64,000 nucleotides of DNA from Acidimicrobiales bacterium (GTDB lineage Bacteria; Actinomycetota; Acidimicrobiia; Acidimicrobiales; CATQHL01). Positions 1-20,680 of the stretch are shown in pieces (position 1 is the stretch's first letter; every line of letters starts with the position of its first letter). A program made the translations under genes and the position numbers. The stretch is taken from assembly GCA_965242895.1 (NCBI GenBank), contig OZ251507.1, forward strand, positions 2,592,286-2,656,285. Direction: 5' to 3'. Below the pieces are notes generated by a model. It had not been told where the DNA came from. It did no database searches and saw only the letters and a program-made list of their open reading frames with translations.

Positions 1-1754
1 CTTCAGCGGCGGATGTTGAAGCCTGTCAGGAAGCAGCCGAACTTGCAGCAACTGGGTGGAGACCTGTCGGCAATCTACCGCCCAGAGGAAAAGGGTTGGG
101 GTTCAGGGTTCAGGCTTATGGCTTTGAGAAGTGGTGGCAGTTGTTCACCGACCGTCAACTCATAGCCCTCACCACGTTTTCAGATCTCTTAGCTGAGGTG
201 CATAAACGGGTGGTTATCGATGCTGCTTCTGCAGGTTTGGCTGAAAAGGGGAAGCACCTGAGGGATAAGGGATCAGGTGCTGTCGCTTACGCCGACGCGG
301 TTGTGACATATTTGGCTTTTGCTCTCGATAAGTGCGCCGACTACTGGTCGAGCATCTCCACTTGGGACAAGTCGGGTGAGAAAATTGGGCACACTTTTCC
401 GCGTCAAACTTTATCGATGTCTTGGGATTTTTGCGAAGCCAACCCTTTTTCATCTTCGACTGGAAACTGGATGTCAATGGTCAATCGGGTAGCAAAAGCG
501 CTCGAAACTTTACCTTCGGCAGGGACGGCAGAAGTATGGCAACAGGATGCGCGAATCCTGATACACAGTACAACTGGAGTGGTAATTTCCACCGATCCTC
601 CCTATTACGACAACATCGGTTATGCGAATATCTCCGATTTTTTCTATGTTTGGCTGCGCCATAACCTTGCCGATGTCTGGCCAGATGAGTGCGCCACGCT
701 GTTATCGCCGAAAGTTGGCGAACTCATTGCTGATTCGAGTCGTCATGGGGGTAAGAAAGAAGCGAGAGAACATTTCGAGTCGGGGATGGGCGAGTTCATG
801 GCTGAAGTTGCGGCATCGCAGCATCCTGATGTGCCTGCCACTATCTACTACGCATATAAAGCCACGGAAAATACTGAAGATGGTGGCGTGCGTTCGACAG
901 GTTGGGACACTTTTTTGCAAGCTGTGATTGATTCCGGACTTCAAATCACTGCTACTTGGCCTCTGCGTACAGAACGACAAATCAGATTAAATTCCATAGG
1001 CTCCAATGCTCTCGCTTCCTCGGTCGTTCTGGCCTGCCGTCCTCGCCCGGCGTCGGCTGCTCTCGCTACTCGGAGTGAGTTCATTGCCGAGCTTCGTGAC
1101 AAACTCCCGTTAGCAATCAAGGTCATGCAGTCCGGCAACATTGCTCCCGTCGACTTGCCGCAGTCGACCATAGGGCCTGGCATCAAAGTGTTCTCCGGCT
1201 ATGCCAAGGTTGTTGAGGCCAGCGGTATGCAGATGTCGGTGAGCGACGCTTTGGCGCTCATCAACGAGGTGCTCGATGATGTTCTTCATGGGGAGGAGTC
1301 TGAACTCGATTCCGACACTCGTTTCGCTTTGGCTTGGTATGCGCAGCACGGTTTTGAGCCAGCCCCGTTCGGAGACGCTGATTCCATCGCTCGAGCCAAG
1401 AACACTTCTGTGGAGGGTGTAGTCAGGGCGGGCGTCGGGGAGACCTCTGTCGGGAAGTTCCGCCTTTACCGCCGCTCGGAGTTGGATGAGGACTGGGATC
1501 CCACCAGCGACAGCAGGCTGACTGCCTGGGAAGCCCTTCAGCACTTAGCGGCGCGCCTGGAGCGCTCGGAGTCGCAGGCCACTGATTTGTTAGCACGCCT
1601 AGGAAACACCGGTGATGGCGCCCGCCAACTCGCCTACCTCCTGTACAAGATCGCTAGCGACAACCGATGGGCGGAAGAAGCACTCACCTACAACAACCTG
1701 ATAGCTGTCTGGCCGATACTGCGAAATAAGTCGCAACTTGAATTAGGGATCTAG
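1..1754 (+). CDS. DUF1156-family (COG1743-type) DNA methyltransferase, tandem paralogue 1; 5' end lies upstream of the window
   Basis: The frame is open from nt 3 (SAADVEACQEAAELAATGW...). It is collinear with roughly the last 580 residues of the next two genes. It has motif IV TDPPYYDNIGYA and the shared C-terminal tail RLERSESQA..RQLAYLLYKIA..WAEEALTYNNLI. The ORF-track start at 96 is only an in-frame TTG. Confidence 0.85.
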   Translation, partial: SAADVEACQEAAELAATGWRPVGNLPPRGKGLGFRVQAYGFEKWWQLFTDRQLIALTTFSDLLAEVHKRVVIDAASAGLAEKGKHLRDKGSGAVAYADAVVTYLAFALDKCADYWSSISTWDKSGEKIGHTFPRQTLSMSWDFCEANPFSSSTGNWMSMVNRVAKALETLPSAGTAEVWQQDARILIHSTTGVVISTDPPYYDNIGYANISDFFYVWLRHNLADVWPDECATLLSPKVGELIADSSRHGGKKEAREHFESGMGEFMAEVAASQHPDVPATIYYAYKATENTEDGGVRSTGWDTFLQAVIDSGLQITATWPLRTERQIRLNSIGSNALASSVVLACRPRPASAALATRSEFIAELRDKLPLAIKVMQSGNIAPVDLPQSTIGPGIKVFSGYAKVVEASGMQMSVSDALALINEVLDDVLHGEESELDSDTRFALAWYAQHGFEPAPFGDADSIARAKNTSVEGVVRAGVGETSVGKFRLYRRSELDEDWDPTSDSRLTAWEALQHLAARLERSESQATDLLARLGNTGDGARQLAYLLYKIASDNRWAEEALTYNNLIAVWPILRNKSQLELGI

Positions 1755-1994: not shown

Positions 1995-2125
1995 GTGAAT
2001 GACTTTCAAGCGCAAGTTGATCGAAGAGGCAGATGCCGCTGAGAGTGACATGGTGAGGGCGTGAACGTCTCTAAGCCGAAGTTGATCGGGGTGGCGGATA
2101 CCGCTGAGTGTGGCAAGGTGAGAGT
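1995..2125 (+). repeat. Two degenerate tandem copies (~65-bp period) of the methyltransferase start region upstream of paralogue 2
   Basis: GTGAATGACTTTCAAGCGCAAGTTGATCGAAGAGGC starts at 1995. GTGAACGTCTCTAAGCCGAAGTTGATCGGGGTGGCG starts at 2061. Both mimic the real start GTGAACGTCTATAAGCCGAAGCTGATTGAGGTGGCG at 2126. The 2061 copy opens a 22-codon uORF (VNVSKPKLIGVADTAECGKVRV) whose TGA (2127-2129) overlaps the GTG at 2126. Confidence 0.8.
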
Positions 2126-4966
2126 GTGAACGTCTATAAGCCGAAGCTGATTGAGGTGGCGCTGCCCCTCCATGCGATCAACAAGGCGTCGGCGCGGGAG
2201 AAGTCGATCCGGCATGGGCATCCGTCGACGCTGCATTTGTGGTGGTCGCGGAAGCCTTTGGCGGCTTGTCGGGCTGTGCTGTGGGCTTCGTTGGTGGATG
2301 ACCCGTCGGCGCACCCGGACAGGTTTCCGACCGAAGAGTCTCAGGTCGTGGAGCGCAAGCGCTTGTTCGGAATCTTGGAAGACTTGGTGGTTTGGGAGAA
2401 CAGCAACAATACGGATGTGCTAGCCGAGGCTAAGGCTGAGGTTGAGCGGTGTTTCCCAGGCGGGCCGCCGGCGGTGCTCGACCCGTTTGCCGGGGGTGGC
2501 TCCATTCCGTTGGAGGCTCAGCGGCTGGGGTTGACGGCGTTGGCCGGCGAGTTGAATCCGGTGGCGGTTTTGATCAACAAGGCGATGCTGGAGTTTCCGA
2601 CGCGTTTCGCAGGGCGACCGCCGGTGCATCCTGAGGCCAGAAGTGCTTCCAGCACGGGGAGCAGGGGGCGGGGGCGGCGTTCGGATCGATCCGAGGGCGC
2701 CGAGGGTGCTGATAGTGATTTCACCATGTGGAGCGGGGCGCAGGGGTTGGCTGCTGACATCAGGGCTTACGGGGCTTGGATGAGGGACGAAGCTCAGCGC
2801 AGGATCGGGCACTTGTACCCGGACGCTGTTGGCCCTGACGGGGAGAAGTTGACTCCGATTGCGTGGATTTGGGCTAAGACTGTGCGGTCTCCTGACCCAG
2901 CGTGGGAGGGGCATGTGCCGTTGGTTAGCTCGTGGACGCTTCGTAAGGCGATGCGAGGCAAGCCCGAGGTGTGGGTGGAACCGATCGTGGACAAGGCAGC
3001 TCAGAGTATTTCTTATCGTGTGAGAGAGGGCAGTGCCCCGCCGACCTTAGAACGCACTGTCAATAGGGGGAATGGGGTTTGCGTCGCCACTGGCGCGGCG
3101 ATTCCGGTGAACTACATAAGAACCGAGGGGCAGGCGGGGCGCATGGGTGCACATCTCTTGGCGGTCGTGGCTGAAGGGAATAGAAGACGTCAGTATTTTG
3201 AATCTTCAGCAGCGGATGTCAATGTCTGTCAGGCAGCAGCCGAACTTGCAGAGACTGGCTGGAAGCCTGCCGGCAACCTACCCCCCCGAGGAAAAGGGTT
3301 GGGGTTCAGCGTGCAAAACTATGGCTATGAGAAGTGGTGGCAGTTGTTCACCGACCGTCAACTCGTGGCCTTGACCACGTTTTCTGATCTCTTGGGTGAA
3401 GTCCGTGAACAGGTTCTTGATTGTGCGAGATACGCCGGTCTAGCAGACGATGGGGTTCGACTGCGGGACGGAGGAGCGGGTGCGGTCGCCTACGCTGACG
3501 CGGTTGTGACCTACTTGGCGTTCGTGGTCGATAAGTGTGCCGACTACTGGTCGAAAGTTAGTACTTGGATTAATTCCCGCGAAACAATTAGAAGTACGTT
3601 CGTACTGCCTGTCATCTCAATGTCTTGGGATTTTGCTGAAGTCAATCCGTTTTCTTCGTCTACAGGCAATTGGCTGGGACAACTAGAGTGGGTGTGCAGG
3701 GCTGTTGAGCGCCATCCGGCGAGAGGTGATGCGGAGGTTGAGCAGAAGGATGCTCGGGTAAGGACACAAGAATCAGTCGGGTGTTTGATCTCAACAGACC
3801 CTCCCAATTACGACAACATCGGCTATGCGGATATCTCCGACTTTTACTATGTGTGGCTGCGTCGTAACCTCGCTGATGTCTGGCCGGATGAGTGTGCCAC
3901 GCTGTTGTCGCCGAAAGTTGACGAACTAATCGCTGATTCCAGTCGTCATGGGGGCAGGAAGGAAGCTCAAGAACACTTCGAGTCGGGGATGGCCGAGTTC
4001 ATGGCTGCGGCTGCGGCATCGCAGCATCCTGATGTTCCTACCACTATTTACTACGCCTACAAAGCTACGGAAACTTCAGAAGAAGGCAGAGTGCGTTCGA
4101 CAGGTTGGGACACGTTCTTGCAGGCAGTAATCGATGCCGGTTTGCAAGTCACTGCTACTTGGCCTCTGCGAACAGAACGACAAATCAGATCACATTTCTT
4201 TGGTTCTACTGCCCTCGCTTCCTCGGTTGTTCTAGTTTGTCGTCCTCGCCCGGCGTCGGCTTCTCTCGCTACTCGAAGCGAGTTCATCGCTGCGCTTCGT
4301 GAAGAACTCCCGCGGGTGATCAAGCTCCTGCAGTCTGGCAACATTGCTCCCGTCGACTTGCCCCAGTCGACAATCGGCCCTGGCATCCAAGTGTTCTCCC
4401 GCTATGCCAGGGTTATCGAGGCCAGCGGTACGCGGATGCCTGTGAGCGACGCTTTGGCAATCGTCAACGAGGTGCTCGACGAGGTTCTCCACGGGGAGGA
4501 AACCGAGGTGGACGCTGAAACTCGCTTCGCCTTGGCTTGGTACACGCAGCACGGCTTCGAAGCCGGCCCGTTTGGTGGATTTGGTGGAGCGGAGTCCGTA
4601 GCTAGGGCAAAGAACACTGCCATTGAAGAGGTGATCAAAGCTGGGATAGGTGAAGCCACCGCTGGGAGGTTCCGTCTGTACGCTCGTTCGGAACTCGATC
4701 CCGACTGGGATCCCTCAAGCGGCACCAGTCTGATTGCTTGGGAGGCGCTCCAGCATTTAGCGGCGCGGTTAGAAAGGTCGGAGTCGCAGGCGGCTGATTT
4801 GCTTGCGCGCCTAGGAAGCACCGCCGACGGCGCCCGCCAACTCGCCTATCTCCTGCACAAGATTGCTAGCGGCAACCGCTGGGCGGAAGAAGCACTCACC
4901 TACAACAATCTCATAACTGTCTGGCCGATACTAATGATGTTTCCACGTGTGCAACTGACACTTTAG
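2126..4966 (+). CDS. DUF1156-family DNA methyltransferase, tandem paralogue 2 (motif IV reads DPPN instead of DPPY)
   Basis: N-terminus is VNVYKPKLIEVALPLHAINKASAREKSIRHGHPSTLHLWWSRKPLAACRAVLWASLVDDP (DUF1156 signature). Motif I is DPFAGGGSIPLEAQRLG. Motif IV is STDPPNYDNIGYA. The ORF track starts at GTG 2108; I prefer GTG 2126 by alignment with paralogue 3 (MSTYRRKLIEV). Confidence 0.85.
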   Translation: MNVYKPKLIEVALPLHAINKASAREKSIRHGHPSTLHLWWSRKPLAACRAVLWASLVDDPSAHPDRFPTEESQVVERKRLFGILEDLVVWENSNNTDVLAEAKAEVERCFPGGPPAVLDPFAGGGSIPLEAQRLGLTALAGELNPVAVLINKAMLEFPTRFAGRPPVHPEARSASSTGSRGRGRRSDRSEGAEGADSDFTMWSGAQGLAADIRAYGAWMRDEAQRRIGHLYPDAVGPDGEKLTPIAWIWAKTVRSPDPAWEGHVPLVSSWTLRKAMRGKPEVWVEPIVDKAAQSISYRVREGSAPPTLERTVNRGNGVCVATGAAIPVNYIRTEGQAGRMGAHLLAVVAEGNRRRQYFESSAADVNVCQAAAELAETGWKPAGNLPPRGKGLGFSVQNYGYEKWWQLFTDRQLVALTTFSDLLGEVREQVLDCARYAGLADDGVRLRDGGAGAVAYADAVVTYLAFVVDKCADYWSKVSTWINSRETIRSTFVLPVISMSWDFAEVNPFSSSTGNWLGQLEWVCRAVERHPARGDAEVEQKDARVRTQESVGCLISTDPPNYDNIGYADISDFYYVWLRRNLADVWPDECATLLSPKVDELIADSSRHGGRKEAQEHFESGMAEFMAAAAASQHPDVPTTIYYAYKATETSEEGRVRSTGWDTFLQAVIDAGLQVTATWPLRTERQIRSHFFGSTALASSVVLVCRPRPASASLATRSEFIAALREELPRVIKLLQSGNIAPVDLPQSTIGPGIQVFSRYARVIEASGTRMPVSDALAIVNEVLDEVLHGEETEVDAETRFALAWYTQHGFEAGPFGGFGGAESVARAKNTAIEEVIKAGIGEATAGRFRLYARSELDPDWDPSSGTSLIAWEALQHLAARLERSESQAADLLARLGSTADGARQLAYLLHKIASGNRWAEEALTYNNLITVWPILMMFPRVQLTL

Positions 4967-5148
4967 TTTCGCGCCGAGTAAGAACCTGTTGCCACACTGG
5001 ACAGGGAAACTAATTCCGCTAAGGGCGAGAATGGGGGGCGATGCGTTGGCGGTGCTCGCGAGGTCTTCTAGGTGGGTAACTTCTTGCAGGTTGTCATTGC
5101 GTCTAGTTACGGCAACGTGATGCTCAAAGTCTTAGAGTGGCAAGGTGA

Positions 5149-8070
<2,922 letters not shown>

Positions 8071-8386: not shown

Positions 8387-9622
8387 ATGGAAAATTTACA
8401 TACAACACTTATGAGAGCACGAGAGCGAATTGGTTATTCACAAGAAGCAATTGGAGCCGCGCTCGGAATCAGCCGAGCCATGGTTTCTTACTGGGAGACA
8501 GGCAGCCGCAAGCCGAACGACCGCCAACTCAACGCCCTTGCGCGCCTTTACGAAGTGGAGTTGGCCGATCTGCTGGCGGGCCGCAACATTGAACCGGCGG
8601 GCGCAAACCTTGCTGAGCTGATGTTACGCGCCAATGGAGGAGTCGACCCTGCTTCGTCGCCGGGTATCCATGAGTTTGTTGGTTTCCTGGAACGCCACGC
8701 TGAACTAGCGGAGATGTTGCAACTGCCTATTCGCGGCATGCGAGAAAGTCCGTTCACATTTCGGGAAGAATTCTCGGCAAAGAGTGATATAAGCCGAAAG
8801 GCCGAGGAAGTGCGCGCACATCTTCGCCTTGGCATTGCGCCTATTTATGACCTCGACGTGATATGTGAGACATTGGGAATAACGCTCTACAGGGCGTCTC
8901 TTGGAGGAGACTTGCGCAGGTTTCCGTCAGGGGCGTTCCTAAAGCACCCCGAGGTGGGGTTTTCAATTCTTGTGAACTTAGACATGACGCCAGGGCGCCG
9001 TCGTTTTACTATCGCACATGAACTTGCGCACGCTCTCTTCCACAGTCACGACAACCCTGCGCTGGTTTCGCAGACGGGCGCCTCAGGCGCCTCAAGGGAG
9101 GCGTTCGCTGACGAATTTGCGGGCGAATTCCTTATGCCTAGAGAGGGAGTTCGTCAATTCATGGAGAGGATGGATATGCCGCGGCGTGTGAGCGACCCCG
9201 TGGAAGCAATCCACATTCAGCGGTATTTCCGCGTTTCATGGGCGACAACACTTGTGCGGCTATATCAGATGAACACACTCTCCGAAAGCGATTTTCAGCA
9301 ATTTAGAAGAGAAGTGAAGCCGGTGTTTCTAGCGCGTTCTCTGGGATACGAGATATATCCGGAAGAACTCAAGCAATTCCCCGAACTTTGGACACTCCGC
9401 AGATTTCCCAGGCTGTTCCTACGCATGCTGCGAAAGGCGGTTCGTGACGAGATGATGTCGATCTCGACAGCGGCATCGTTTGCTGGTCTAGCCGTGCCTG
9501 ATGTCGTCAACCTCATCGGAGGGCCAGGGTCAGGTGCTAGCGAAACCGAGGTGAACGATCACGCTGTTGAGTTTGAAGAATACGAATCAAGCGACATAAT
9601 CTCGTTCGCACAGGCTGCGTAG
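8387..9622 (+). CDS. XRE-family HTH fused to an ImmA/IrrE-type (COG2856, M78-like) zinc metallopeptidase domain
   Basis: The N-terminal HTH is LMRARERIGYSQEAIGAALGISRAMVSYWETGSRKPNDRQLNALARLY. The HEXXH motif is in FTIAHELAHALFH, followed by ADEFAGEFLMP. Confidence 0.8.
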   Translation: MENLHTTLMRARERIGYSQEAIGAALGISRAMVSYWETGSRKPNDRQLNALARLYEVELADLLAGRNIEPAGANLAELMLRANGGVDPASSPGIHEFVGFLERHAELAEMLQLPIRGMRESPFTFREEFSAKSDISRKAEEVRAHLRLGIAPIYDLDVICETLGITLYRASLGGDLRRFPSGAFLKHPEVGFSILVNLDMTPGRRRFTIAHELAHALFHSHDNPALVSQTGASGASREAFADEFAGEFLMPREGVRQFMERMDMPRRVSDPVEAIHIQRYFRVSWATTLVRLYQMNTLSESDFQQFRREVKPVFLARSLGYEIYPEELKQFPELWTLRRFPRLFLRMLRKAVRDEMMSISTAASFAGLAVPDVVNLIGGPGSGASETEVNDHAVEFEEYESSDIISFAQAA

Positions 9623-9818: not shown

Positions 9819-12800
9819 ATGGCAACGATGACCAACAACGCAAGGGTCGCAAAAGCGCTCGAATTATTGCGCGACGGGCTAGCGCCCAAGTGCGAAGAGA
9901 CATGGAAGGGGTTCTACGGGGGCGGCTGGCTGAAGACCGTCAACCGCATGCAGCGCACACAGGCTCACGATCCCTCCACAAGCGATGTGTCCTTCCTGCT
10001 TAACGCGATCAAATCCACTTGGGATGAAGTGTTTTCACATGGCTTCCCGAGGGCGGTGCTCTCCCTGGTTTTTGAAGCGGCGACGGCGCGCAATCGATGG
10101 GCGCACCAGGAACAGTTCTCCAGCGACGACACCAATCGTGCGCTGGACACCATGGAGCGCTTGCTCGATGCGTTCGGCAATGTCGAGCAGCAGCAACAGA
10201 TGCGCAGTCTGCGGCGTGACCTGATGCGCCGCGTCTTTGAGCAGGAATCGCATAACGAGCGTCGCAAAGCTTCCGCCAAACCCACAGAGGGGGAGCCTCA
10301 AGGGGGGCTGACGCCATGGCGAGAGATCATCACCCCGCACGAGGACGTGCGTTCAGGGCGTCTCAACCAGGCCGAGTTTGCAGCTGACCTGCACGAAGTC
10401 GCCTCAGGTCGGGGCGAGGAGGAATACGGAGACCCTAAGGCGTTCTTTGCTCGAACCTACATGACCAGGGGTTTGGAAGACCTTCTAGTGGGGGCTGCGC
10501 GGCGTCTCTCCGGCGGGGCCGGCGAACCGGTCATTCAGCTGCAGACCAACTTCGGAGGCGGTAAGACGCACAGCATGATCGCCCTCTATCACCTCGCTTC
10601 CGGTGTTCCGCCCAGTGAGTTGCCCGGGGTGGGGGAGTTGCTGTCCGGTGAGAACTTGACGCTGCCATCGGAGATCAGCAAGGCCGTGCTAGTGGGTCAT
10701 AAAATCTCGGTGTCCACGCCAGAGACGGAGGACATGGAGGGGAGAACGCTTCCCGACGGCATCAGGCTGCACACGCTCTGGGGCCACTTGGCTTATCAAC
10801 TCGGCGGGAAGGAAGGTTACGAACTCGTTCGAGCCGACGATGAGGCTGCAACCAACCCAGGTGACTCCCTTCGGGCTTTGTTCACCCGGTTCGGCCCTGC
10901 CGTGGTGCTCATCGACGAGTGGGTTGCCTACGCCCGTCAACTTCCTGACGGAGGGTCGGGGTGGCGTGCGCGTGAGGCGGGAGGCGATTTCGACACGCAA
11001 TTCACCTTCGCCCAGGCGCTCACCGAAGCGGCGGCTGCGGTTTCGAACGTGGTTGTGCTTATCACAGTACCGGCTTCCGACATCGAGGTGGGAGGTGAGC
11101 TGGGCAGGTCTGCCTTGGCACGGCTGGAGAACGTGGTCAGCCGCACGGCTAAGCAGTGGCAGGCGGCCTCGCCTGCGGAGTCCTTCGAGATCGTCCGTCG
11201 GCGGCTATTCGACGAGATTGCAGCAGACAAGGTGAAGATGCGCGACGCCGTGATCGCCGCTTTCAGCAAGTGGTACGGCGACAAAGCGAGAGCGCCCGAT
11301 TTTCCCATCGAGGTCAAGGAAGCGGAGTACCGGCGCAAGATGGAAGCTTGCTATCCCATCCACCCCGAACTCTTCGACCGGCTGTTTGGGGATTGGTCTA
11401 CCCTCGACAAGTTCCAGCGCACCCGCGGGGTTCTGAGGTTAATGGCCCTGGCTATCTCCGAATTGTGGAAACGGGGCGACCAGTCTCTGCTGATAATGCC
11501 TGGCAACCTGCCGATGGACTCGGGGGTGTTGGTCAGCGAGATGACGAAATACCTGGAAGATGGCTGGGACCCGGTTATCAAGACCGACATCGACGGTGAA
11601 GGTTCCCTCCCGCTCCGTCTTGACAGGGAAAATAAACACTTCGGGCGTTATTCCGCCGCCCGCCGCGCAGCCCGCACCGTTTATATGGGTTCTGCACCTG
11701 GGGGAGAGGGTATAGAAGGTGGGGTGCAACGCGGTATCGACCTCAAGCGGGTGGTGTTGGGTTGCGTCCAGCCGGGTGAGCCGCCTAACCAGTTCGTCGA
11801 CGCTCTCAGGCGGTTGTCGGGGTCGGATGCAGCCACGTATTTGTATGTGGACGGCGCTTCGTACTGGTACTCGCGGCAGATCAACGTCGCGCGTCTGGCT
11901 CGAGACAGGGCAGAGGGATATCTTGACAGGGACGCCGACGAGGAGGTGCGGAAACGGATCGAAAGGCAGTCCGGTCGGGGGAGGAGAGGAAGTTTCTCTG
12001 CAGTACAGGTGTTTGCCGAGGGGCCGGGGGACGTGCCCGACGATGACGACGGTGTGAGACTCGTGGTCTTGACCCCCGAGAAGACCCACTCGAGGGGTGA
12101 CGAGCATTCTCAGGCGTCTGGCTTAGCGGGGGAGATATTGAACCAGCGAGACGCCGGACCGAGGCTGAATCGCAACATGCTGGTGTTCACGGCGGCGGAC
12201 GCAAACCGTCTGATAGACCTGCGCGCAGCGGCAAAGTCTTTCATGGCGTGGAAGTCGATAGACGAAGAAGCCGAGACTCTGAACCTGACCGCCCACCAGA
12301 ACAAGCAGGCCGATACCAAGTCCAAGGAAACCGACGAGCAGGTTGAAAGTCAGATCGCGGAGACTTTCATCCTAGTGCTCACCCCTAAGGGAAAGCCAGG
12401 CACTTCGGAGATCGATTGGCAGACCACCCGCGTGTCGCCGAGCAGTAAAGAGAGGTGGCTGGCAGCGCGTGTGAGCAGGAAACTGGAGAGCGAGGAGAAA
12501 CTGATCTCCACCTACGGAGGGGTGCGGGTGAAGATGGACTTGGATCGTTTCAAGCTGTGGTCGGAGCGGGGCGACCTGCAAGTGCGGACGCTCTGGGAGA
12601 AGTATGCGAGATTCCTGTATATGCCCAGGCTGGCCTCTTTGAAGTTCCTGCTGGAAGCAGTAGGCGATGGGCCGGGGAGCACGATGTGGAGGGAGGAGAC
12701 CTTCGCCTACGCCGAAGCCTGGGACGAGCAGAGGGAGACCTGGGTAGGAGTGCGCTCCGGTGCGCGGGCGAATGCGAACATAAGCGGATTTGTGGTGCAG

Positions 12801-13205
12801 AGCGAGCGCCTGCCGTTACCAGAAGAGGCGGATGCGCCTGGAGCGCTCTTCCCCGGCGCCGACGAGGGTGCGTCTGGAGCGGCCGTGCCAGGGGAGACTC
12901 CTGGAACGGTCGCCCAAGCCGGAGGACAGGGTTCGAACGTCCAGCAAAAAATCCTAACTGTGCCCCAAAAACCCAAGCTGACAAGGTTCTACGCCCAATT
13001 CGACCTAGACTCCACCCGCCCCATCAAGCAGCTAGGCGAGATACTCGAGCACGTAACTCACCACCTAGGGTCAGACGTGGAGTTGTCGCTAGAGATAAAT
13101 GCCAAGAGCCCCGAAGGCTACGACGACAACACCCGACGAGTAGTCTCGGAAAACTCCATCCAGCTAGGAGCAAAAGGCGCCGAATTCGAAGACCAAGAGG
13201 AGTAA
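9819..13205 (+). CDS. DUF499-family P-loop ATPase with N-terminal Swt1-like HEPN domain
   Basis: The HEPN Rx4H motif is in ATARNRWAHQEQFS. Walker A-like motif is TNFGGGKTHSM and Walker B-like motif is AVVLIDEWVAY. The large size and the position next to DUF1156 genes fit the known DUF1156/DUF499 pairing. Confidence 0.75.
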   Translation: MATMTNNARVAKALELLRDGLAPKCEETWKGFYGGGWLKTVNRMQRTQAHDPSTSDVSFLLNAIKSTWDEVFSHGFPRAVLSLVFEAATARNRWAHQEQFSSDDTNRALDTMERLLDAFGNVEQQQQMRSLRRDLMRRVFEQESHNERRKASAKPTEGEPQGGLTPWREIITPHEDVRSGRLNQAEFAADLHEVASGRGEEEYGDPKAFFARTYMTRGLEDLLVGAARRLSGGAGEPVIQLQTNFGGGKTHSMIALYHLASGVPPSELPGVGELLSGENLTLPSEISKAVLVGHKISVSTPETEDMEGRTLPDGIRLHTLWGHLAYQLGGKEGYELVRADDEAATNPGDSLRALFTRFGPAVVLIDEWVAYARQLPDGGSGWRAREAGGDFDTQFTFAQALTEAAAAVSNVVVLITVPASDIEVGGELGRSALARLENVVSRTAKQWQAASPAESFEIVRRRLFDEIAADKVKMRDAVIAAFSKWYGDKARAPDFPIEVKEAEYRRKMEACYPIHPELFDRLFGDWSTLDKFQRTRGVLRLMALAISELWKRGDQSLLIMPGNLPMDSGVLVSEMTKYLEDGWDPVIKTDIDGEGSLPLRLDRENKHFGRYSAARRAARTVYMGSAPGGEGIEGGVQRGIDLKRVVLGCVQPGEPPNQFVDALRRLSGSDAATYLYVDGASYWYSRQINVARLARDRAEGYLDRDADEEVRKRIERQSGRGRRGSFSAVQVFAEGPGDVPDDDDGVRLVVLTPEKTHSRGDEHSQASGLAGEILNQRDAGPRLNRNMLVFTAADANRLIDLRAAAKSFMAWKSIDEEAETLNLTAHQNKQADTKSKETDEQVESQIAETFILVLTPKGKPGTSEIDWQTTRVSPSSKERWLAARVSRKLESEEKLISTYGGVRVKMDLDRFKLWSERGDLQVRTLWEKYARFLYMPRLASLKFLLEAVGDGPGSTMWREETFAYAEAWDEQRETWVGVRSGARANANISGFVVQSERLPLPEEADAPGALFPGADEGASGAAVPGETPGTVAQAGGQGSNVQQKILTVPQKPKLTRFYAQFDLDSTRPIKQLGEILEHVTHHLGSDVELSLEINAKSPEGYDDNTRRVVSENSIQLGAKGAEFEDQEE

Positions 13206-13259: not shown

Positions 13260-14081
13260 TCATTGGTCAAAATCAAGTAGGGTATTCTGCAGAGATTTTG
13301 GAGGCCAAAAAATTCCCAGAATCAAAAAAGATTTAGGGTGGATTTTTTGGTTGCCAACAAAAAGGACTGTGTCGCGGTCGTCAGACCATATCTCATCACA
13401 AAATTTCTTTTGCATCTTTTGTTTCCAGTCATTCGCATTCTTTACTTTCCTATACAAAGCAGAAATCTCCCAGTCGACGATGCTCTGCTCATGGCTTTTG
13501 CATTCTGGAGCAAGACAATAATATTTATACTTAAATTTCCAGGGTCTAAATTCGAGAGGTATTGCTTTGCTAGCTGGAGTATCGAAAAGATCTTGCTGGC
13601 CGGTGATTGACTCCAATTTTGTTGTAAAAGCACGCTTTTCCTTTTCGGTTCGTTTGGAGATAAGTAGCTTTGGTTTTTCCTTGGCCCTAACGATCGATAG
13701 TGAAGGCCTGGATTTTCCTGTTTTAGACGTAGCACCTTTCCTCAGGTCGCACATAGTAAACTCATCAAGTTGTTGCACTCGCTCACGACGTAGTGCCCAA
13801 TTCTTTGCGTCAATCAACTTACCAGTTTTTATTGTGTCAAGAATAGGGGTTCGAGATTCTTGCCTCGTGTCATCTCTTGGACGCGTCACCTCTAACTCGA
13901 TTTCCTGATACTTCTTGAATTTGGATTCATCGTCCAGATCACGGAACGGGGTCGGGAAAAGACGTATCCATTTTGGTTTTTCGTCAAGGGTCATACCTGC
14001 CACACATACGGCTTCTTCTTTGGAGGCCAAGATAGGAGCAGCTTTGACGAGTATCATCAATTTAAGTTGTTCGCTAGTCAT
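13260..14081 (-). CDS. Hypothetical protein (273 aa), family not recognised
   Basis: Clean AT-rich ORF. Features: LFPTPFRDL, KYKYYCLAPECKSHEQSIVDWEISALYRKV, a C-terminal FVGNQKIHPKSFLILGIFWPP, and possible C-x3-C-x2-H metal ligands. Confidence 0.6.
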   Translation of the reverse strand: MTSEQLKLMILVKAAPILASKEEAVCVAGMTLDEKPKWIRLFPTPFRDLDDESKFKKYQEIELEVTRPRDDTRQESRTPILDTIKTGKLIDAKNWALRRERVQQLDEFTMCDLRKGATSKTGKSRPSLSIVRAKEKPKLLISKRTEKEKRAFTTKLESITGQQDLFDTPASKAIPLEFRPWKFKYKYYCLAPECKSHEQSIVDWEISALYRKVKNANDWKQKMQKKFCDEIWSDDRDTVLFVGNQKIHPKSFLILGIFWPPKSLQNTLLDFDQ

Positions 14082-14487: not shown

Positions 14488-17400
14488 TCAATCGATATCT
14501 GACCCCTCTTCTTCAGGTGCGATTTCGAGCCCTCGTTCACGAAGAGCAGTTTCTAAGCGCTCGTACTCGGGCGTCCCGCTGAGTTCTTGAGCCGATTCGA
14601 GGGCTTGACAAGCGTAGTCATTTGCTCTGGACATTGTGTCCAGAGAGTTGTTTACACGAATCAAATAGTTGAATATCTCTAAGCAACTTTTCTTGTCCTC
14701 AAGCTTTAGTGCTCGTTCTGTGACCTGGCGTTCCGCATTGATGTGGCCGCCAGTTAATTTCAGAGTTTCTAAAGTTCGTCTAGCCCATTGTGCGTCGTCT
14801 ATAGAGAATACTTCGGAATACCAACCGAAGCCTCTAAGATGCTTCGGTTCCTTCAGTTCTAACACCTTGCCCCAAAAGCAGTCGGCGATCCTGGCCATTT
14901 TGTGTCTTTGAGGGTCGATTACGGCTCGCAGGTATTTCCCAATTCGTTCGCCGGCGTAGGAGATTGCCGTGATTTCTCTCTGCCATGGGGCGGCAGGATC
15001 TGGTAATTTTCTTGCTGTCTTCGGAGGAACTTGATCGAGAAAATCGATAACTCCTTTGACAGAGTATCCCTCGTGTTCTCGAAGCATGCCCACTAGATAA
15101 TAGAACAAAGATTCCGGGACGTGCCTCTTGACGGAATTTTCGATCATCTCTCTGTAATTCCTAAACAGCCAGTCGCTCGGCTGCCCTCTACTGAAGGTCT
15201 GCTCAACGGTTCGTTGAGCGAGCCCGTCGGGGGCATGCTCACCGAATATTAAATCACGCGTATTCTCAAGCCATTCTGGCGCTAAGTGCTCTAGCCAGTC
15301 CAGAGTAGGGGCGATGATCGCTCGGCACTCAATGCCATCCTGTCCGCCAAGTTGTAGGCAGTCTTCCAGAATTTGGAGAGTTTCTGGTCGTACAATCTTG
15401 AATTTGTTGTATTCGTATCTTGAAAAGAACAATAGTGAAAGCAGGGCATAGGTGCATGTGCGGTCGAAAGCAATTCTGAACGTATCGAGGCGAAGATCGG
15501 AATACATCCTTGATGGTTCTGAGCGATCCTCGATTTGCTGTTTTAGTATGTTCCATACTCTGTCTCGGCGATTTCCATAACCGATTTCCGAATTGGCAAG
15601 GACGTCGATAAGTTCGATACTGGCACGCTTCGTTTTGTTCCAGTTTATGTCGTAGTCGGACTGACTATTCCCGAGCGGCTCGACATCCTGGGGCTCACTA
15701 TAAATCGTTTCGACAAAGTCAATCAGTTCAGCAATTTGTTGGTCGCTGGGTTTAACATTCCCATTGTTGATCGCTGATGCAATTCCACTAAGATAGTGGT
15801 GAATATAAGTGGGGTGACGGAGTGTTTCCAGAATACTCTGAGGAGACTTCAACCATTCGTTTGGACTTGCCTGTACCGTCGAAAGGAGTGCGGCTCCTAG
15901 TTCGTGGGGAGTCTGGACGATTTCCCGATCTGACTGCGAAGAGACCTTAGGTCTCCAAGCGGCGATTAGTGAAGCTGCTTCTTCGGGGGCAAGCTTCTGC
16001 AATTCTTCAGCACTGAATGGGCTTGTAGTCATGAAATATTCTGTTTTGAAGGCGAACTCAAGGTCGTGCCGGTTGTGCGGCAAATGCAGTTTTGCCAACT
16101 CTTGGAGCGCCAGTTCCCAGTCTTGGCGGAGGTTGTCCAACAGCTTCTCGTTCTGGCTTGAATCTTCTGTCAGTATGTTGACCCAGTCCAGCTTTCTGCG
16201 CCATTCATCGGGTATGAAGTTTTCTGATATCGCATCTTTGATTTTTTCCGAATTCGGAGCATCATCCAGCGCTTCGTTCCAAATAGGGGCGAATTCGCTG
16301 TTTTCGCAATCTTTTACAATGCGATTAAGTAGCGATATGTGGTCGCCAGTAACCTTGTGGGATTTGATTGCTTCAGCGATTTCCCTGATGCGTGTTCCAT
16401 TCTGGGCGCTGTCGGAAGTAGCGAGAAGCCAAGCTCGAACTCGCTGCTGCATGAAAGGTGGCAGTTCGGATAGGCTTTCAATTAGCTCTTCGGCTGTAGT
16501 CCAGGATTGGGACTTTTGAAGGATTGTTAGCAGACCGTTCAGTAGAACTGAGAAAAAACCATTGTAATCAGTCCTGCGAACACTTACCTCACCCTCAGTG
16601 GCCTTGTAATCACTTACTGAGCCTTCTTGAAAGTGTTCTAGCCTGCGACGTGTGCGCTTGTTTTCAGGAACGCCCTTAAGTTTGTAACAGATAAGTTCAG
16701 TTCGCGTGGCATAGTTAGATTCAGTAATGCCTTCAGCGAATGCCTCTATCAATTTGGTGTTATTGTGCAGCGACATAGAGTCTTCAATAAATCTAGGTGG
16801 GTTTGGACTGACTAATTTGTCAAAGAGATTTGTCAGCAAGTTACTTGCGGGTTCGGCCTTCGCAGAAGCCCAATATCCTAGTTCGACGATCTCTGGCCTC
16901 GCCGGAAAGTTCAAAACAGCTTTTAGCACGATGGGCAGAGCATCTGCTCCTATATGAAAGGCGCATAGGGTGATATGCCAGATTGTTTCGTGCTCGTTCT
17001 TGTATTTTTCAAGTAATGTGTCGAGCAGGTCAACTATCTCGGTAGGGAATTCTTGATACAGGTTTTTAAGTGCGTAAGATGCCGGCCAAAATTCTCCAGG
17101 AGGTCCAGGTCTATATATTGGTGGATCGATTATGTCGGTTTCTAGCAGTACTTTAAGCCAATCCAAAGAAGACAGATGCTCAAAAAAATGTCTGTAGTGA
17201 GTCGCCGTAACAGCGTATTGCCGCAGTTGCTTAATGTCATCTTCAGTTGGCGCTTCGATCCTTGCTAACGATTCCAATTTGCGAATTCGCTTTGCTGGCG
17301 GCATGAATAGTGCTTCGAATGCTTTCAGACACTCTGACCATTTAGCTTGAGTTTCTTGAAGGGTTGCTTCAGTATGAAGTTGGTGGTTGAGCTCTTTATG

Positions 17401-17913
17401 TACTGCAATGAAGTGTTTTAGGGCAGGGGTTTTATCCTTTGGAAGATAACTTGTTCGAGCCTCAATAATATTTTGCAATTTCCTATAATCAGTGTCTTTG
17501 GTTTGGAATTTTCTTAGCTCATCGAGACTTTTTCGGAAATTGTCGTATGCTTCTTCTTTATTTTGTTGAGAATCGTAACGGGCACTTTCAGATTTATGTT
17601 GAGCTGAGGCGACCTTGCGCGTAAGTTGTCCTATGGTGGGCGTTTTTTGGGCATGCGGGAGGGTGAGAAGCTCTTCGGGGGCTTCCAGCAGAGCAGTCAT
17701 TGCTTGGCGTAAAGAATATGCGACCAGTTCAGCAGTACTGGGTGCTGCCAGTTCAACAGTGCTGGGTATAGTCGCATTATTCATTTCTAAGAGCACCTGT
17801 GCAGTTCCCAAGAATACACTTGCCCTCTTGCCCATATCCCCGAATTCTTCTTCAAGGTGAGTTAGGAATTGAGGATCAAGCTTTTTCAGTATTGGTTTTG
17901 CGATTGTTTTCAT
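14488..17913 (-). CDS. Large all-helical protein of unknown family, paralogue 1 (1,141 aa)
   Basis: Collinear with 21857-25234 and 26350-29718. Shared blocks include HITLCAFHIGADALP, ELICYKLK, FFS[IV]LLNGLLTIL, DEWRRKLDWVNILT and ADCFWGKVLE.K.PKHL.GFGWYSE.FSIDD.QWA.RTLETL.LTGGHIN. I found no Walker A, HExxH or other catalytic motif. Confidence 0.8.
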   Translation of the reverse strand: MKTIAKPILKKLDPQFLTHLEEEFGDMGKRASVFLGTAQVLLEMNNATIPSTVELAAPSTAELVAYSLRQAMTALLEAPEELLTLPHAQKTPTIGQLTRKVASAQHKSESARYDSQQNKEEAYDNFRKSLDELRKFQTKDTDYRKLQNIIEARTSYLPKDKTPALKHFIAVHKELNHQLHTEATLQETQAKWSECLKAFEALFMPPAKRIRKLESLARIEAPTEDDIKQLRQYAVTATHYRHFFEHLSSLDWLKVLLETDIIDPPIYRPGPPGEFWPASYALKNLYQEFPTEIVDLLDTLLEKYKNEHETIWHITLCAFHIGADALPIVLKAVLNFPARPEIVELGYWASAKAEPASNLLTNLFDKLVSPNPPRFIEDSMSLHNNTKLIEAFAEGITESNYATRTELICYKLKGVPENKRTRRRLEHFQEGSVSDYKATEGEVSVRRTDYNGFFSVLLNGLLTILQKSQSWTTAEELIESLSELPPFMQQRVRAWLLATSDSAQNGTRIREIAEAIKSHKVTGDHISLLNRIVKDCENSEFAPIWNEALDDAPNSEKIKDAISENFIPDEWRRKLDWVNILTEDSSQNEKLLDNLRQDWELALQELAKLHLPHNRHDLEFAFKTEYFMTTSPFSAEELQKLAPEEAASLIAAWRPKVSSQSDREIVQTPHELGAALLSTVQASPNEWLKSPQSILETLRHPTYIHHYLSGIASAINNGNVKPSDQQIAELIDFVETIYSEPQDVEPLGNSQSDYDINWNKTKRASIELIDVLANSEIGYGNRRDRVWNILKQQIEDRSEPSRMYSDLRLDTFRIAFDRTCTYALLSLLFFSRYEYNKFKIVRPETLQILEDCLQLGGQDGIECRAIIAPTLDWLEHLAPEWLENTRDLIFGEHAPDGLAQRTVEQTFSRGQPSDWLFRNYREMIENSVKRHVPESLFYYLVGMLREHEGYSVKGVIDFLDQVPPKTARKLPDPAAPWQREITAISYAGERIGKYLRAVIDPQRHKMARIADCFWGKVLELKEPKHLRGFGWYSEVFSIDDAQWARRTLETLKLTGGHINAERQVTERALKLEDKKSCLEIFNYLIRVNNSLDTMSRANDYACQALESAQELSGTPEYERLETALRERGLEIAPEEEGSDID

Positions 17914-19115: not shown

Positions 19116-19493
19116 ATGGCCAAGAAGCGTGTGTTCGTGAGCTTTGACTACGACAACGACAAAGATCTCAAGGAGTTATTGGTTGGACAAGCGAGGAACC
19201 CTGATTCCCCATTCGAGGTTATCGATCATTCTCTGAAGGAGGCTCAGCCAGAGAAGGACTGGGAAGAGAAAGCCGAGATGGCTATCAAGCGTGCGGAATT
19301 CTTCATTGTGATGCTCGGCTCTCGCACAAGGTGGGCATCTGGGGTACTTAAAGAGGTGAAGATTGCTCAGAAACTCAATAAGAAGAAATTTCAACTAATT
19401 GGCCGTCCAGAGGGATCTGAGTCGTGGGCTGTGCCAGGAGGTGGAAGGACTTACAGGTGGGCATGGCCGAATCTCAAGAATTTGTTGAGCTAG
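19116..19493 (+). CDS. TIR-like domain protein (DUF1863 / MTH538-type, ThsB-like)
   Basis: MAKKRVFVSFDYDNDKDLKELLVGQ... then FFIVMLGSRTRWASGVLKEVKIA. RBS AAAGGTAGG lies upstream of ATG 19116. The ORF-track start at 19005 is probably too early. Confidence 0.7.
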   Translation: MAKKRVFVSFDYDNDKDLKELLVGQARNPDSPFEVIDHSLKEAQPEKDWEEKAEMAIKRAEFFIVMLGSRTRWASGVLKEVKIAQKLNKKKFQLIGRPEGSESWAVPGGGRTYRWAWPNLKNLLS

Positions 19494-19510
19494 AAGAAAG
19501 GCAGTCTGTG

Positions 19511-20680
19511 ATGACACGGCCGTATGAAGTTGTAATCGTCCACGAGGATCTTGACGATTGGGCTAGGGAAGTTAAGGAGTCCGTAAGGGAGACTGGCGAG
19601 ACAATTCTTTCTCAGTCTGAGGCGATCGGTTGCAGGGAAGTCAATTCTCGTGATGACTTATGTGAACTAAGTAATCCGGAGCATCATGTCGTCGTGCTCT
19701 ATTTGGGGAACAGAGCTGGAGGTCAAAGTGAAGCGATTAATTCGGCTCTCAATATGGCGCTAGAGAATTCAATATCGGTTCTACCAGTGGTGAGACAATC
19801 TGATCCTGGCGATGTTGAGGAAAAGCTGCCCCAGTCTGTGCAATTGCTTAATGCAGCAGATTGGAATGAAGATCGCGGTCGGGCGCTTACTGCTTTGCGG
19901 CAGATGCTTGGACTAGAGGAGTCGGAGCGCAAAGTATTTATATCTTATTCTCGTCAGGAATCTAGCGAAATAGCGTTTCAGCTGCACGACGCTTTATCCA
20001 GGCGCAAGTTCGACGTGTTTCTGGATCGATTCAGTGTGCAGCCTGGAGAAGATTTTCAGCGGAAGCTTGATCAGGAGCTGGCAGACAAGGCTTTTGTTGT
20101 GCTTCTCGAGAGCCCAGGTGTTCGAGAATCGAGATGGATTCAGCATGAGATTTCCTACGCACTCGATCACCGCATCGGTGTCTTGGCAGTCACGATGCCG
20201 AGTGTCGGGTCGGAATCGGTCTCCGTTGTGCACGAAGCTTTCCGCTTGCGTCTTTGTCCTACCGAGTTTGCCGGCGGAGGAGAACTAACAGATAAAGCCC
20301 TTGAGAGGGTTTTAAGCGAAATAGAACTCAGACATGCTCAAGCGCTACGAAGACGACGGGAGCAACTTCTAGGAAGTCTGCGTGAGAAGCTGGTCAAGGA
20401 CGGGGGCTGCTGTCGCCCCGCGGCAGATTGGGCGGTTGTCGCATCGGTGCCGGGAGAGGGAACTTCAGCGTTTCTGATAACACCTAGGAGTCCATGCCCT
20501 AGCGATCTCTACCGCCTCTACCAAATTCGCTCCAACGCCGTTTCCTACGCTGGCAGCGACCTAAAAGCAGTACTTGTTCACGCAACCGAGAACATCAGTT
20601 GTGAACAAGAATCTCTGATTGATTGGGTCAAGGAAGGGTGGGGGTTGGATGTGCTGGTATTGCAAGACTTTAACTTTTAG
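19511..20680 (+). CDS. TIR domain protein with extra N-terminal (flavodoxin/TIR-like) and C-terminal unknown domains
   Basis: The central TIR is RKVFISYSRQESSEIAFQLHDALSRRKFDVFLDRFSVQPGEDF...AFVVLLESPGVRESRWIQHEISYAL, including an S-x-W-x3-E motif. ATG 19511 follows GAAGAAAGG. The 125-aa C-terminal region was not recognised. Confidence 0.75.
   Translation: MTRPYEVVIVHEDLDDWAREVKESVRETGETILSQSEAIGCREVNSRDDLCELSNPEHHVVVLYLGNRAGGQSEAINSALNMALENSISVLPVVRQSDPGDVEEKLPQSVQLLNAADWNEDRGRALTALRQMLGLEESERKVFISYSRQESSEIAFQLHDALSRRKFDVFLDRFSVQPGEDFQRKLDQELADKAFVVLLESPGVRESRWIQHEISYALDHRIGVLAVTMPSVGSESVSVVHEAFRLRLCPTEFAGGGELTDKALERVLSEIELRHAQALRRRREQLLGSLREKLVKDGGCCRPAADWAVVASVPGEGTSAFLITPRSPCPSDLYRLYQIRSNAVSYAGSDLKAVLVHATENISCEQESLIDWVKEGWGLDVLVLQDFNF

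Follow-up and report, generated by a model that had tools for sequence, protein, structure and literature searches.

The Hma defence system (Payne et al., 2021) has lately been reclassed as a type-1, DUF499-centred member of the bacteriophage exclusion (BREX)-related, or BR, systems, whose type-1 components are an ATPase, an N6-methyltransferase with a DUF1156 domain and a helicase-nuclease (PMC12839542). The published Hma survey retained only loci that carry each hma gene once. Here, we describe an Hma locus with a tandem array of the methyltransferase gene hmaB, found in a stretch of 64,000 nt (hereafter the window) from the genome of an Acidimicrobiales bacterium (assembly GCA_965242895.1, contig OZ251507.1, positions 2,592,286 to 2,656,285 of the forward strand), and focus on its second copy, termed paralogue 2, which carries DPPN at the catalytic motif IV where DPPY is usual. 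With a probability of roughly 0.45, we read paralogue 2 as an attenuated or non-methylating writer that is retained as a reader or specificity subunit, self-protection being supplied by residual activity or by the neighbouring paralogue 1.

The consequences of motif IV changes in a BR methyltransferase have been followed in the MANTIS system, where knockout of mtsC is non-toxic, the single MtsC mutants D621A or Y624A show reduced but detectable methylation and no toxicity, and the D621A/Y624A double mutant loses methylation and becomes autoimmune, being tolerated only with a nuclease-dead MtsD; exchanging the target recognition domain (TRD) in MtsC changes restriction specificity (10.64898/2026.09.23.753747). 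Taken together, the mutants and the TRD swap indicate that the methyltransferase is the reader for restriction and that a single motif IV change gives a viable hypomorph. Motif VIII of MtsC, which was reported as a monomer, lies on a flexible loop that must move in for catalysis (10.64898/2026.09.23.753747). In BREX and Pgl the methyltransferase PglX/BrxX is likewise the specificity factor for methylation and defence (PMC11341690, PMC11842806), and in Streptomyces Pgl, pglX phase-varies via a G tract, and its function was probed with the NPPY mutant Y381A (PMC4365076). Other N6-adenine methyltransferases lose all or most of their activity when the motif IV Tyr is replaced; the HP0593 mutant Y107G is inactive, and M.TaqI Y108A/G and EcoP1I/EcoP15I are cited beside it on Tyr replacement (PMC3036652).

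The array encodes N6-adenine methyltransferases of the HmaB/DUF1156 family and belongs to an Hma defence locus (type-1 BREX-related, DUF499-centred). All three copies carry the Pfam DUF1156 domain at the N-terminus and match the PADLOC HmaB profile ('DNA-adenine methylase') from end to end. Paralogue 2 (2108 to 4966, forward strand) reaches 1015 bits against PADLOC HmaB PDLC00660 over aa 12-941 and 102.5 bits against DUF1156 (Pfam PF06634, cutoff 24), and consists of the DUF1156 N-terminal domain, an alpha-class N6-adenine methyltransferase core that is split by the TRD insert, and C-terminal helical domains. Upstream lie the C-terminal 583 codons of paralogue 1 (3 to 1754, forward strand; PADLOC HmaB 662 bits), which is cut by the window start and whose full-length protein is P0002 with 913 aa; downstream follow paralogue 3 (5149 to 8070, forward strand, probable start ATG at 5218) and HmaC (9819 to 13205, forward strand; PADLOC HmaC 900 bits), where HEPN_Swt1 is fused to a DUF499 AAA+ ATPase. 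A fourth HmaB paralogue, P0010 (948 aa, DPPY), is encoded on the same contig outside the window, and the HmaB copies number at least three in tandem in the locus and at least four in the genome. The order HmaA, one HmaB, HmaC was found in 32 fetched loci. No HmaA was found in the 64-kb window; relatives have it ahead of the HmaB array, on the upstream side, which here would be beyond the window start, and by analogy the HmaA SNF2-type helicase-nuclease is expected there. The NCBIfam anti-phage DUF1156 and DUF499 equivalogs gave only matches below cutoff, and the system is thus related to, yet distinct from, the RL/MANTIS type.

Nucleotides 3797-3808 of the window read GAC CCT CCC AAT and encode DPPN at aa 564-567 of paralogue 2 (Y567N), directly after the predicted strand beta4 (aa 559-563) of an AlphaFold2 (AF2) model. 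Paralogues 1 and 3 both encode DPPY with TAT where paralogue 2 has AAT, so that a single T>A change sets paralogue 2 apart, just as the initial annotation of this DNA had it; its further claim that the reading frame is fully open also holds, with 952 codons and neither internal stop nor frameshift. As for conservation of the Tyr, for which that annotation had proposed an alignment of DUF1156 homologues, the residue is present in 268 of 269 sequences aligned at this column in a joint family alignment of 274 sequences and in 145 of 147 among 150 representatives clustered at 50% identity, and 117 of the 120 best homologues carry (D/S)PPY. The same annotation had considered that DPPN might be common in active members of the family; no second DPPN was seen in the 120 best homologues, the 150 representatives or the 274-sequence alignment. 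Other departures at motif IV are APPY (one cluster of four sequences), DPRY (P0120) and DPPS, and two more occur in sequences that look frame-damaged. Paralogue 2 thus lacks the aromatic fourth residue of (D/N/S)PP(Y/F/W) that is expected of a competent amino-methyltransferase, and we know of no active amino-methyltransferase with Asn at this position. It had been proposed that the copy may be inactive or altered: the near-invariance of the Tyr and the inactivity of Tyr mutants elsewhere bear this out in part, but 'inactive' is an unsafe term given that MtsC Y624A still methylates detectably.

The source is a single metagenome-assembled genome (MAG) with one cluster member, which would leave room for an assembly or sequencing error with TAT as the true codon. 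Substitution errors are, however, unlikely in the consensus of a 2.78-Mb single-contig assembly, and F580Y, SHFF, N701T and D148E, which are described below, would call for several independent in-frame non-synonymous errors in the same gene; we hold such an error to be highly improbable.

The evidence speaks against decay of paralogue 2, whose intact reading frame is under purifying selection. Pairwise dN/dS among the three window copies is 0.12-0.19. Private changes were counted for each copy over those codons that do not differ between its two sisters; paralogue 2 shows 52 synonymous and 20 non-synonymous changes (omega ~0.10), paralogue 1 shows 58 and 42, and paralogue 3 shows 96 and 34, and the ratio in paralogue 2 is not different from the ratio in the sisters (Fisher p=0.47). 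Unique amino acid changes in the 583 shared columns amount to 46 in paralogue 2 versus 65 and 57 in the sisters. The dN/dS calculation suggested in the initial annotation therefore returns a copy as constrained as its sisters, and an intact copy under purifying selection is consistent with the non-catalytic or specificity role that had been put forward there. A three-taxon branch omega of ~0.32 was also obtained for paralogue 2; with dS close to saturation and mosaic genes this estimate is unstable, and the codon-level lineage count was used instead. The loss of cofactor motifs that marks pseudo-enzymes is not seen in paralogue 2: motif I (FAGGG, SAM binding, where SAM is S-adenosylmethionine; 2486 to 2500, forward strand, aa 127-131) is intact, with codons GCC GGG GGT GGC that form no long poly-G tract, unlike those of some relatives, and the acidic motif II residue is kept as Glu (D148E, 2549 to 2551, forward strand), a conservative change to the residue found in aligned PDB methyltransferases.

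Besides Y567N, the unusual residues of paralogue 2 gather in one loop. In the AF2 model (pLDDT 81.9, pTM 0.81), aa 689-704 form a low-confidence, predicted flexible loop between beta6 and beta7, in which paralogue 2 has RSHFFGST (4187 to 4210, forward strand, aa 694-701). Its aa 690-700, ERQIRSHFFGS, contain two aromatics, a feature of paralogue 2 alone among the 274 sequences, 249 of which have none at all in this segment; position 697 is aromatic in paralogue 2 only, and N701, 94% conserved in the family, is Thr. Neither SHFF nor N701T recurs in any other of the 274 sequences. The loop difference listed in the initial annotation, IRSHFFGSTALASS, was confirmed and carries this N701T. From the analogy with MtsC we infer that aa 689-704 are the motif VIII loop, and Y567N, SHFF and N701T would then cluster about the presumed base pocket. 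The APPY and SPPY variants of the family are also altered in the beta6-beta7 loop (E690A), so that motif IV and this loop seem to change together. As to the fold at large, single-sequence and profile searches of PDB sequences gave no significant match, only a marginal alignment over motifs I and II, and a Foldseek search of the AF2 model against PDB returned nothing below E=0.04 and only generic class-I methyltransferase folds.

Such a remodelled loop could also belong to a fully competent or re-specified enzyme, in which the lost Tyr is compensated by H696, F697 and F698 of the beta6-beta7 loop or by the adjacent Y568; paralogue 2 would then be an efficient methyltransferase, perhaps with an altered base or context preference. 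The two loop aromatics found in paralogue 2 alone, one of them at a position never aromatic elsewhere, fit this explanation, as do the flexibility of the loop (motif VIII of MtsC moves in for catalysis on a comparable one), the covariation of motif IV and loop in the APPY/SPPY lineage and the strong purifying selection. Yet Asn at the fourth position of motif IV occurs in none of the other ~270 homologues, and the loop is equated with motif VIII by analogy only, which makes a compensated enzyme doubtful.

The initial annotation had also stated that paralogue 2 diverges at other conserved positions, and this is true locally, in the beta6-beta7 loop and in a few conservative changes, but there is no general excess. 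Among columns with at least 95% conservation outside its clade, paralogue 2 has five departures (D148E, R257K, Y567N, F580Y and I786V), against 0-1 in each of six close sister copies; over conserved columns in general its rare residues number 7 versus a family median of 4, which ranks paralogue 2 102nd of 274. The second sequence difference listed there, TFVLPVISMSWDFAEV, was confirmed as well and carries R500L and Q501P, with VLPV (3602 to 3613, forward strand, aa 499-502) replacing the usual G-R-Q-A/T; L500 and P501 are found in 11 and 14 other family members, respectively. The reported insertion of 24 aa is present too, as the G-rich low-complexity segment SSTGSRGRGRRSDRSEGAEGADSD (2648 to 2719, forward strand), and is predicted to be disordered (pLDDT <50 at aa 186-204). 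It lies in a length-variable linker whose spacer reaches at least 20 aa in 24 of the 274 family sequences, and having been considered as a sign of degeneration it was rejected as ordinary linker variation.

The three window copies group together in a neighbour-joining tree on NG86 distances, each related genome's copies likewise form a group of their own, and the identity profiles among HmaB copies are mosaic. Over the 40 codons upstream of motif IV paralogue 2 tracks paralogue 3 (third-position identity 0.83-0.88), from motif IV on it tracks paralogue 1 (0.70-0.80), and the switch from the paralogue 3-like to the paralogue 1-like state falls inside GAC|CCT CCC (breakpoint region 3680-3860 of the window). 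Y567N therefore sits at a gene-conversion-like junction, a possible origin of the substitution. Over the TRD-like segment that varies most in the family (aa 331-390), paralogue 2 shares 77-87% identity with paralogue 1 versus 50-57% with paralogue 3, and paralogues 1 and 2 may thus read the same or a similar DNA motif.

The coincidence of the mosaic breakpoint with motif IV is what recent neutral inactivation might leave behind, that is, a single T>A, possibly via gene conversion, that inactivated one redundant member of the array too recently for more damage to have built up and will make it a pseudogene. DPPN is restricted to one genome, redundancy is plausible with at least four HmaB copies in that genome, and the three-taxon omega is somewhat higher for paralogue 2. 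On the other hand, the lineage-specific omega is 0.10, the unusual residues are not randomly placed and gather in one active-site-proximal loop, and the five departures at conserved columns, against 0-1 in the six sisters, are conservative in four cases. By analogy with MANTIS, moreover, a dead methyltransferase that is still a competent reader would be counter-selected, unless another copy provides cover. Related loci bear on the same question from both sides, since broken copies are found in related arrays and a DPRY variant in a decaying locus, whereas the APPY variant sets a precedent for motif IV variants that can be maintained.

The APPY HmaB, in which the catalytic Asp is lost (P0007, P0121-P0123; L079 10001-12766, L004 10034-12799, L080 1279-4050 and L081 1047-3842), takes the canonical place of the gene in a sister genome, with HmaA and HmaC on either side. 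The four sequences, from four assemblies, differ from one another by 58-116 nucleotides with dN/dS of 0.12-0.24, and all have APPY; for the flanking genes dN/dS is 0.13 (HmaA) and 0.28 (HmaC). Persistence of APPY in four assemblies at such dN/dS indicates that a motif IV variant is kept by selection in this clade. With these observations set beside those on the window copies, neutral inactivation of paralogue 2 appears unlikely, though somewhat less so than a compensated enzyme.

Tandem arrays also occur in related genomes; the closest genomes are sponge-type Acidimicrobiales MAGs. CATQHL010000001.1 (L001 6169-23730 and L005 1-16224) encodes HmaA, seven tandem HmaB copies, two of them frame-broken at poly-G, HmaC and an embedded HTH-M78 gene (HTH, helix-turn-helix), and three HmaB copies are present in OZ219783 (L078). 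In the related HmaB genes, long poly-G tracts (10-20 nt) occur at two fixed sites: one is formed by the motif I GGG codons, the other is a variable site that corresponds to ~aa 281-342 of paralogue 2; tracts of 9-18 nt were located at L001 10357, 13743 and 17143, L005 7363, L063 4132 and 10357, L072 10937 and 21355, L003 11093 and 21359, L004 3800, L078 10352, 15169 and 20240, and L049 10372. Poly-G tracts are seven-fold enriched inside HmaB versus flanks (6.8 vs 0.94 per 100 kb, Poisson p=2e-10), and several related copies are frame-broken exactly at such tracts. In the window, paralogue 3 carries an in-frame (AG)21 repeat (RERERE...; 6101 to 6142, forward strand) at the site of the relatives' poly-G tracts, the sole long simple-sequence repeat in the 64 kb and a likely phase-variation tract, and paralogue 1 and P0010 have poly-Gly at the same variable repeat site. 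Paralogue 2 alone among the window copies and P0010 is without a repeat, its longest runs being C7 and G5. The recurrence of poly-G and (AG)n tracts at fixed HmaB sites suggests phase variation. The existence of the tracts is firm; the on or off state of individual copies is not, because homopolymer lengths are error-prone in assemblies.

How would an attenuated writer retained as a reader work? Paralogue 2 would still bind SAM through its intact motif I and its conserved acidic residue of motif II, would still recognise its DNA motif via the TRD, and would still partner HmaC and the expected upstream HmaA helicase-nuclease; it would methylate poorly, if at all, since Asn is unable to stack against the flipped-out adenine. 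A reader role that directs restriction would need no catalysis, and paralogue 2 would be kept for this role. Residual activity of the kind seen in MANTIS Y624A would provide self-protection, or paralogue 1 with its similar TRD could. The family and locus of the gene, the uniqueness of its substitution, the intact reading frame under purifying selection and the local clustering of its unusual residues are established by the data; reduced activity, the retained reader role and the cover by paralogue 1 are the parts that we infer, and several points weigh against them. No orthologue of paralogue 2 was found in the data, and all of the measured purifying selection may predate Y567N. HmaA is not in the window, and an active restriction partner is thus presumed in this genome. 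The equivalent Tyr mutants of other methyltransferases are inactive. MtsC, on which the analogy draws, is a distant homologue of paralogue 2 (NCBIfam DUF1156_antiphage 111 bits, cutoff 1000) from a type 2 system, and its mutant is Y>A and not Y>N. Several frame-broken HmaB copies in relatives indicate that loss of copies is common in arrays, and the DPRY HmaB (P0120; L082 7738-20500), whose locus is disrupted by integrase/transposase genes and an OLD-like ATPase pair and holds a split HmaC on a 3x-coverage contig, is decay or error and not a maintained variant.

Beyond the single gene, we tentatively entertain, while regarding it as unlikely in full, that in a clade of sponge-type Acidimicrobiales with small genomes one HmaA/HmaC pair is served by a library of tandem HmaB readers and writers, each switched by poly-G or (AG)n tracts, and that this library includes selected, repeat-free attenuated writers (DPPN with a remodelled motif VIII loop; APPY) that tune self-methylation against restriction. 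If so, the repeat-free DPPN and APPY copies would be natural equivalents of the viable, weakly methylating MANTIS mutants with single changes in DPPY. A BREX-related methyltransferase both marks self and directs restriction, and a variant that writes weakly and still reads would bear on the balance between autoimmunity and phage escape by accidental methylation. Should the substitution be a fresh neutral lesion, the finding is an ordinary one.

Several further features surround paralogue 2 and its array. The likelier start of paralogue 2 is a GTG at 2126, giving MNVYKPKLIEV as in homologues. A 65-nt tandem repeat (2008-2137 into ~2200), made of two copies with 80% identity in addition to the true gene start, is a duplication of the gene's 5′ end, and a 39-nt direct repeat lies upstream of it (1764-1802 and 1836-1874). 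About 190 nt of upstream region are ~80% conserved between paralogues 2 and 3 (1835-2030 vs 4987-5180), so that the sequence ahead of each copy, which may be regulatory, seems to have been duplicated along with it. The array is separated from HmaC by a gene with an HTH (XRE) domain and an M78/ImmA-type peptidase domain (8387 to 9622, forward strand), which is RmrA/CapP-like, resembles spr1629-type repressors/antitoxins and is probably a regulator; this is the HTH-M78 gene that the CATQHL array contains as well.

The Hma locus is flanked by two other defence genes, of which one is the PADLOC candidate PDC-M19B (13260-14081, reverse strand), and adjoins a low-GC island (46-51%, where the core genome here has 61-68% GC). 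The island holds the gene at 25236-26027 and those of three paralogous proteins of ~1,125-1,141 aa (14488-17913, 21857-25234 and 26350-29718, all on the reverse strand), for which no Pfam, PADLOC or NCBIfam match was found. The other defence gene encodes a TIR protein (19424-20680, forward strand) that matches ThsB and the NCBIfam model of Thoeris type III ThcB4 (251 bits, cutoff 220).

Among the described systems, the Hma HmaB of Payne et al. resembles paralogue 2 in its full-length profile match, DUF1156 N-terminus, C-terminal helical domains and the alpha-class order of motif I, TRD and motif IV, and the loci agree in the adjacent HEPN-DUF499 HmaC and in an embedded accessory gene, which is often seen in Hma. 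The differences are DPPN in place of the canonical DPPY, at least three tandem HmaB where the canonical locus has one, and no HmaA visible in the window. MtsC of MANTIS (Gao_RL, BR type 2) is likewise an alpha-class N6-adenine methyltransferase that acts with a DUF499 ATPase and a helicase-nuclease, has FAGGG and DPPY motifs and is the sequence reader for methylation and restriction; its single mutants Y624A and D621A are engineered parallels to the DPPN and APPY found in nature, which in turn can be taken as natural experiments matching these mutants. MANTIS differs in having a single methyltransferase gene, as well as MtsB (DUF3780/DUF3870) and a PLD nuclease, and the Hma locus shows neither of the latter two. 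The HmaB tracts resemble the G-tract phase variation of Streptomyces pglX, but PglX/BrxX is gamma-class with another architecture, has no DUF1156 and does not occur in tandem arrays. A degenerate motif IV paralogue retained under selection as the nucleic-acid-binding partner of an active one is known from METTL14 (EPPL) beside METTL3 (DPPW) and from other pseudo-methyltransferase partners; METTL14, however, no longer binds SAM and is an obligate heterodimer partner, whereas motif I of paralogue 2 is intact, MtsC is reported as a monomer and the analysis gave no sign of HmaB-HmaB pairing. Phase-variable mod/hsd methyltransferases share the simple-sequence repeats at fixed sites inside open reading frames, with copies in and out of frame, although here the repeats lie in sisters and relatives and not in paralogue 2, and the organisms are sponge-type Acidimicrobiales MAGs. 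The searchable literature on Hma/BR systems does not describe HmaB arranged in tandem, with as many as seven copies and with hypermutable tracts at conserved positions; such arrays would carry phase-variable, multi-specificity restriction-modification beyond host-adapted pathogens and into sponge symbionts.

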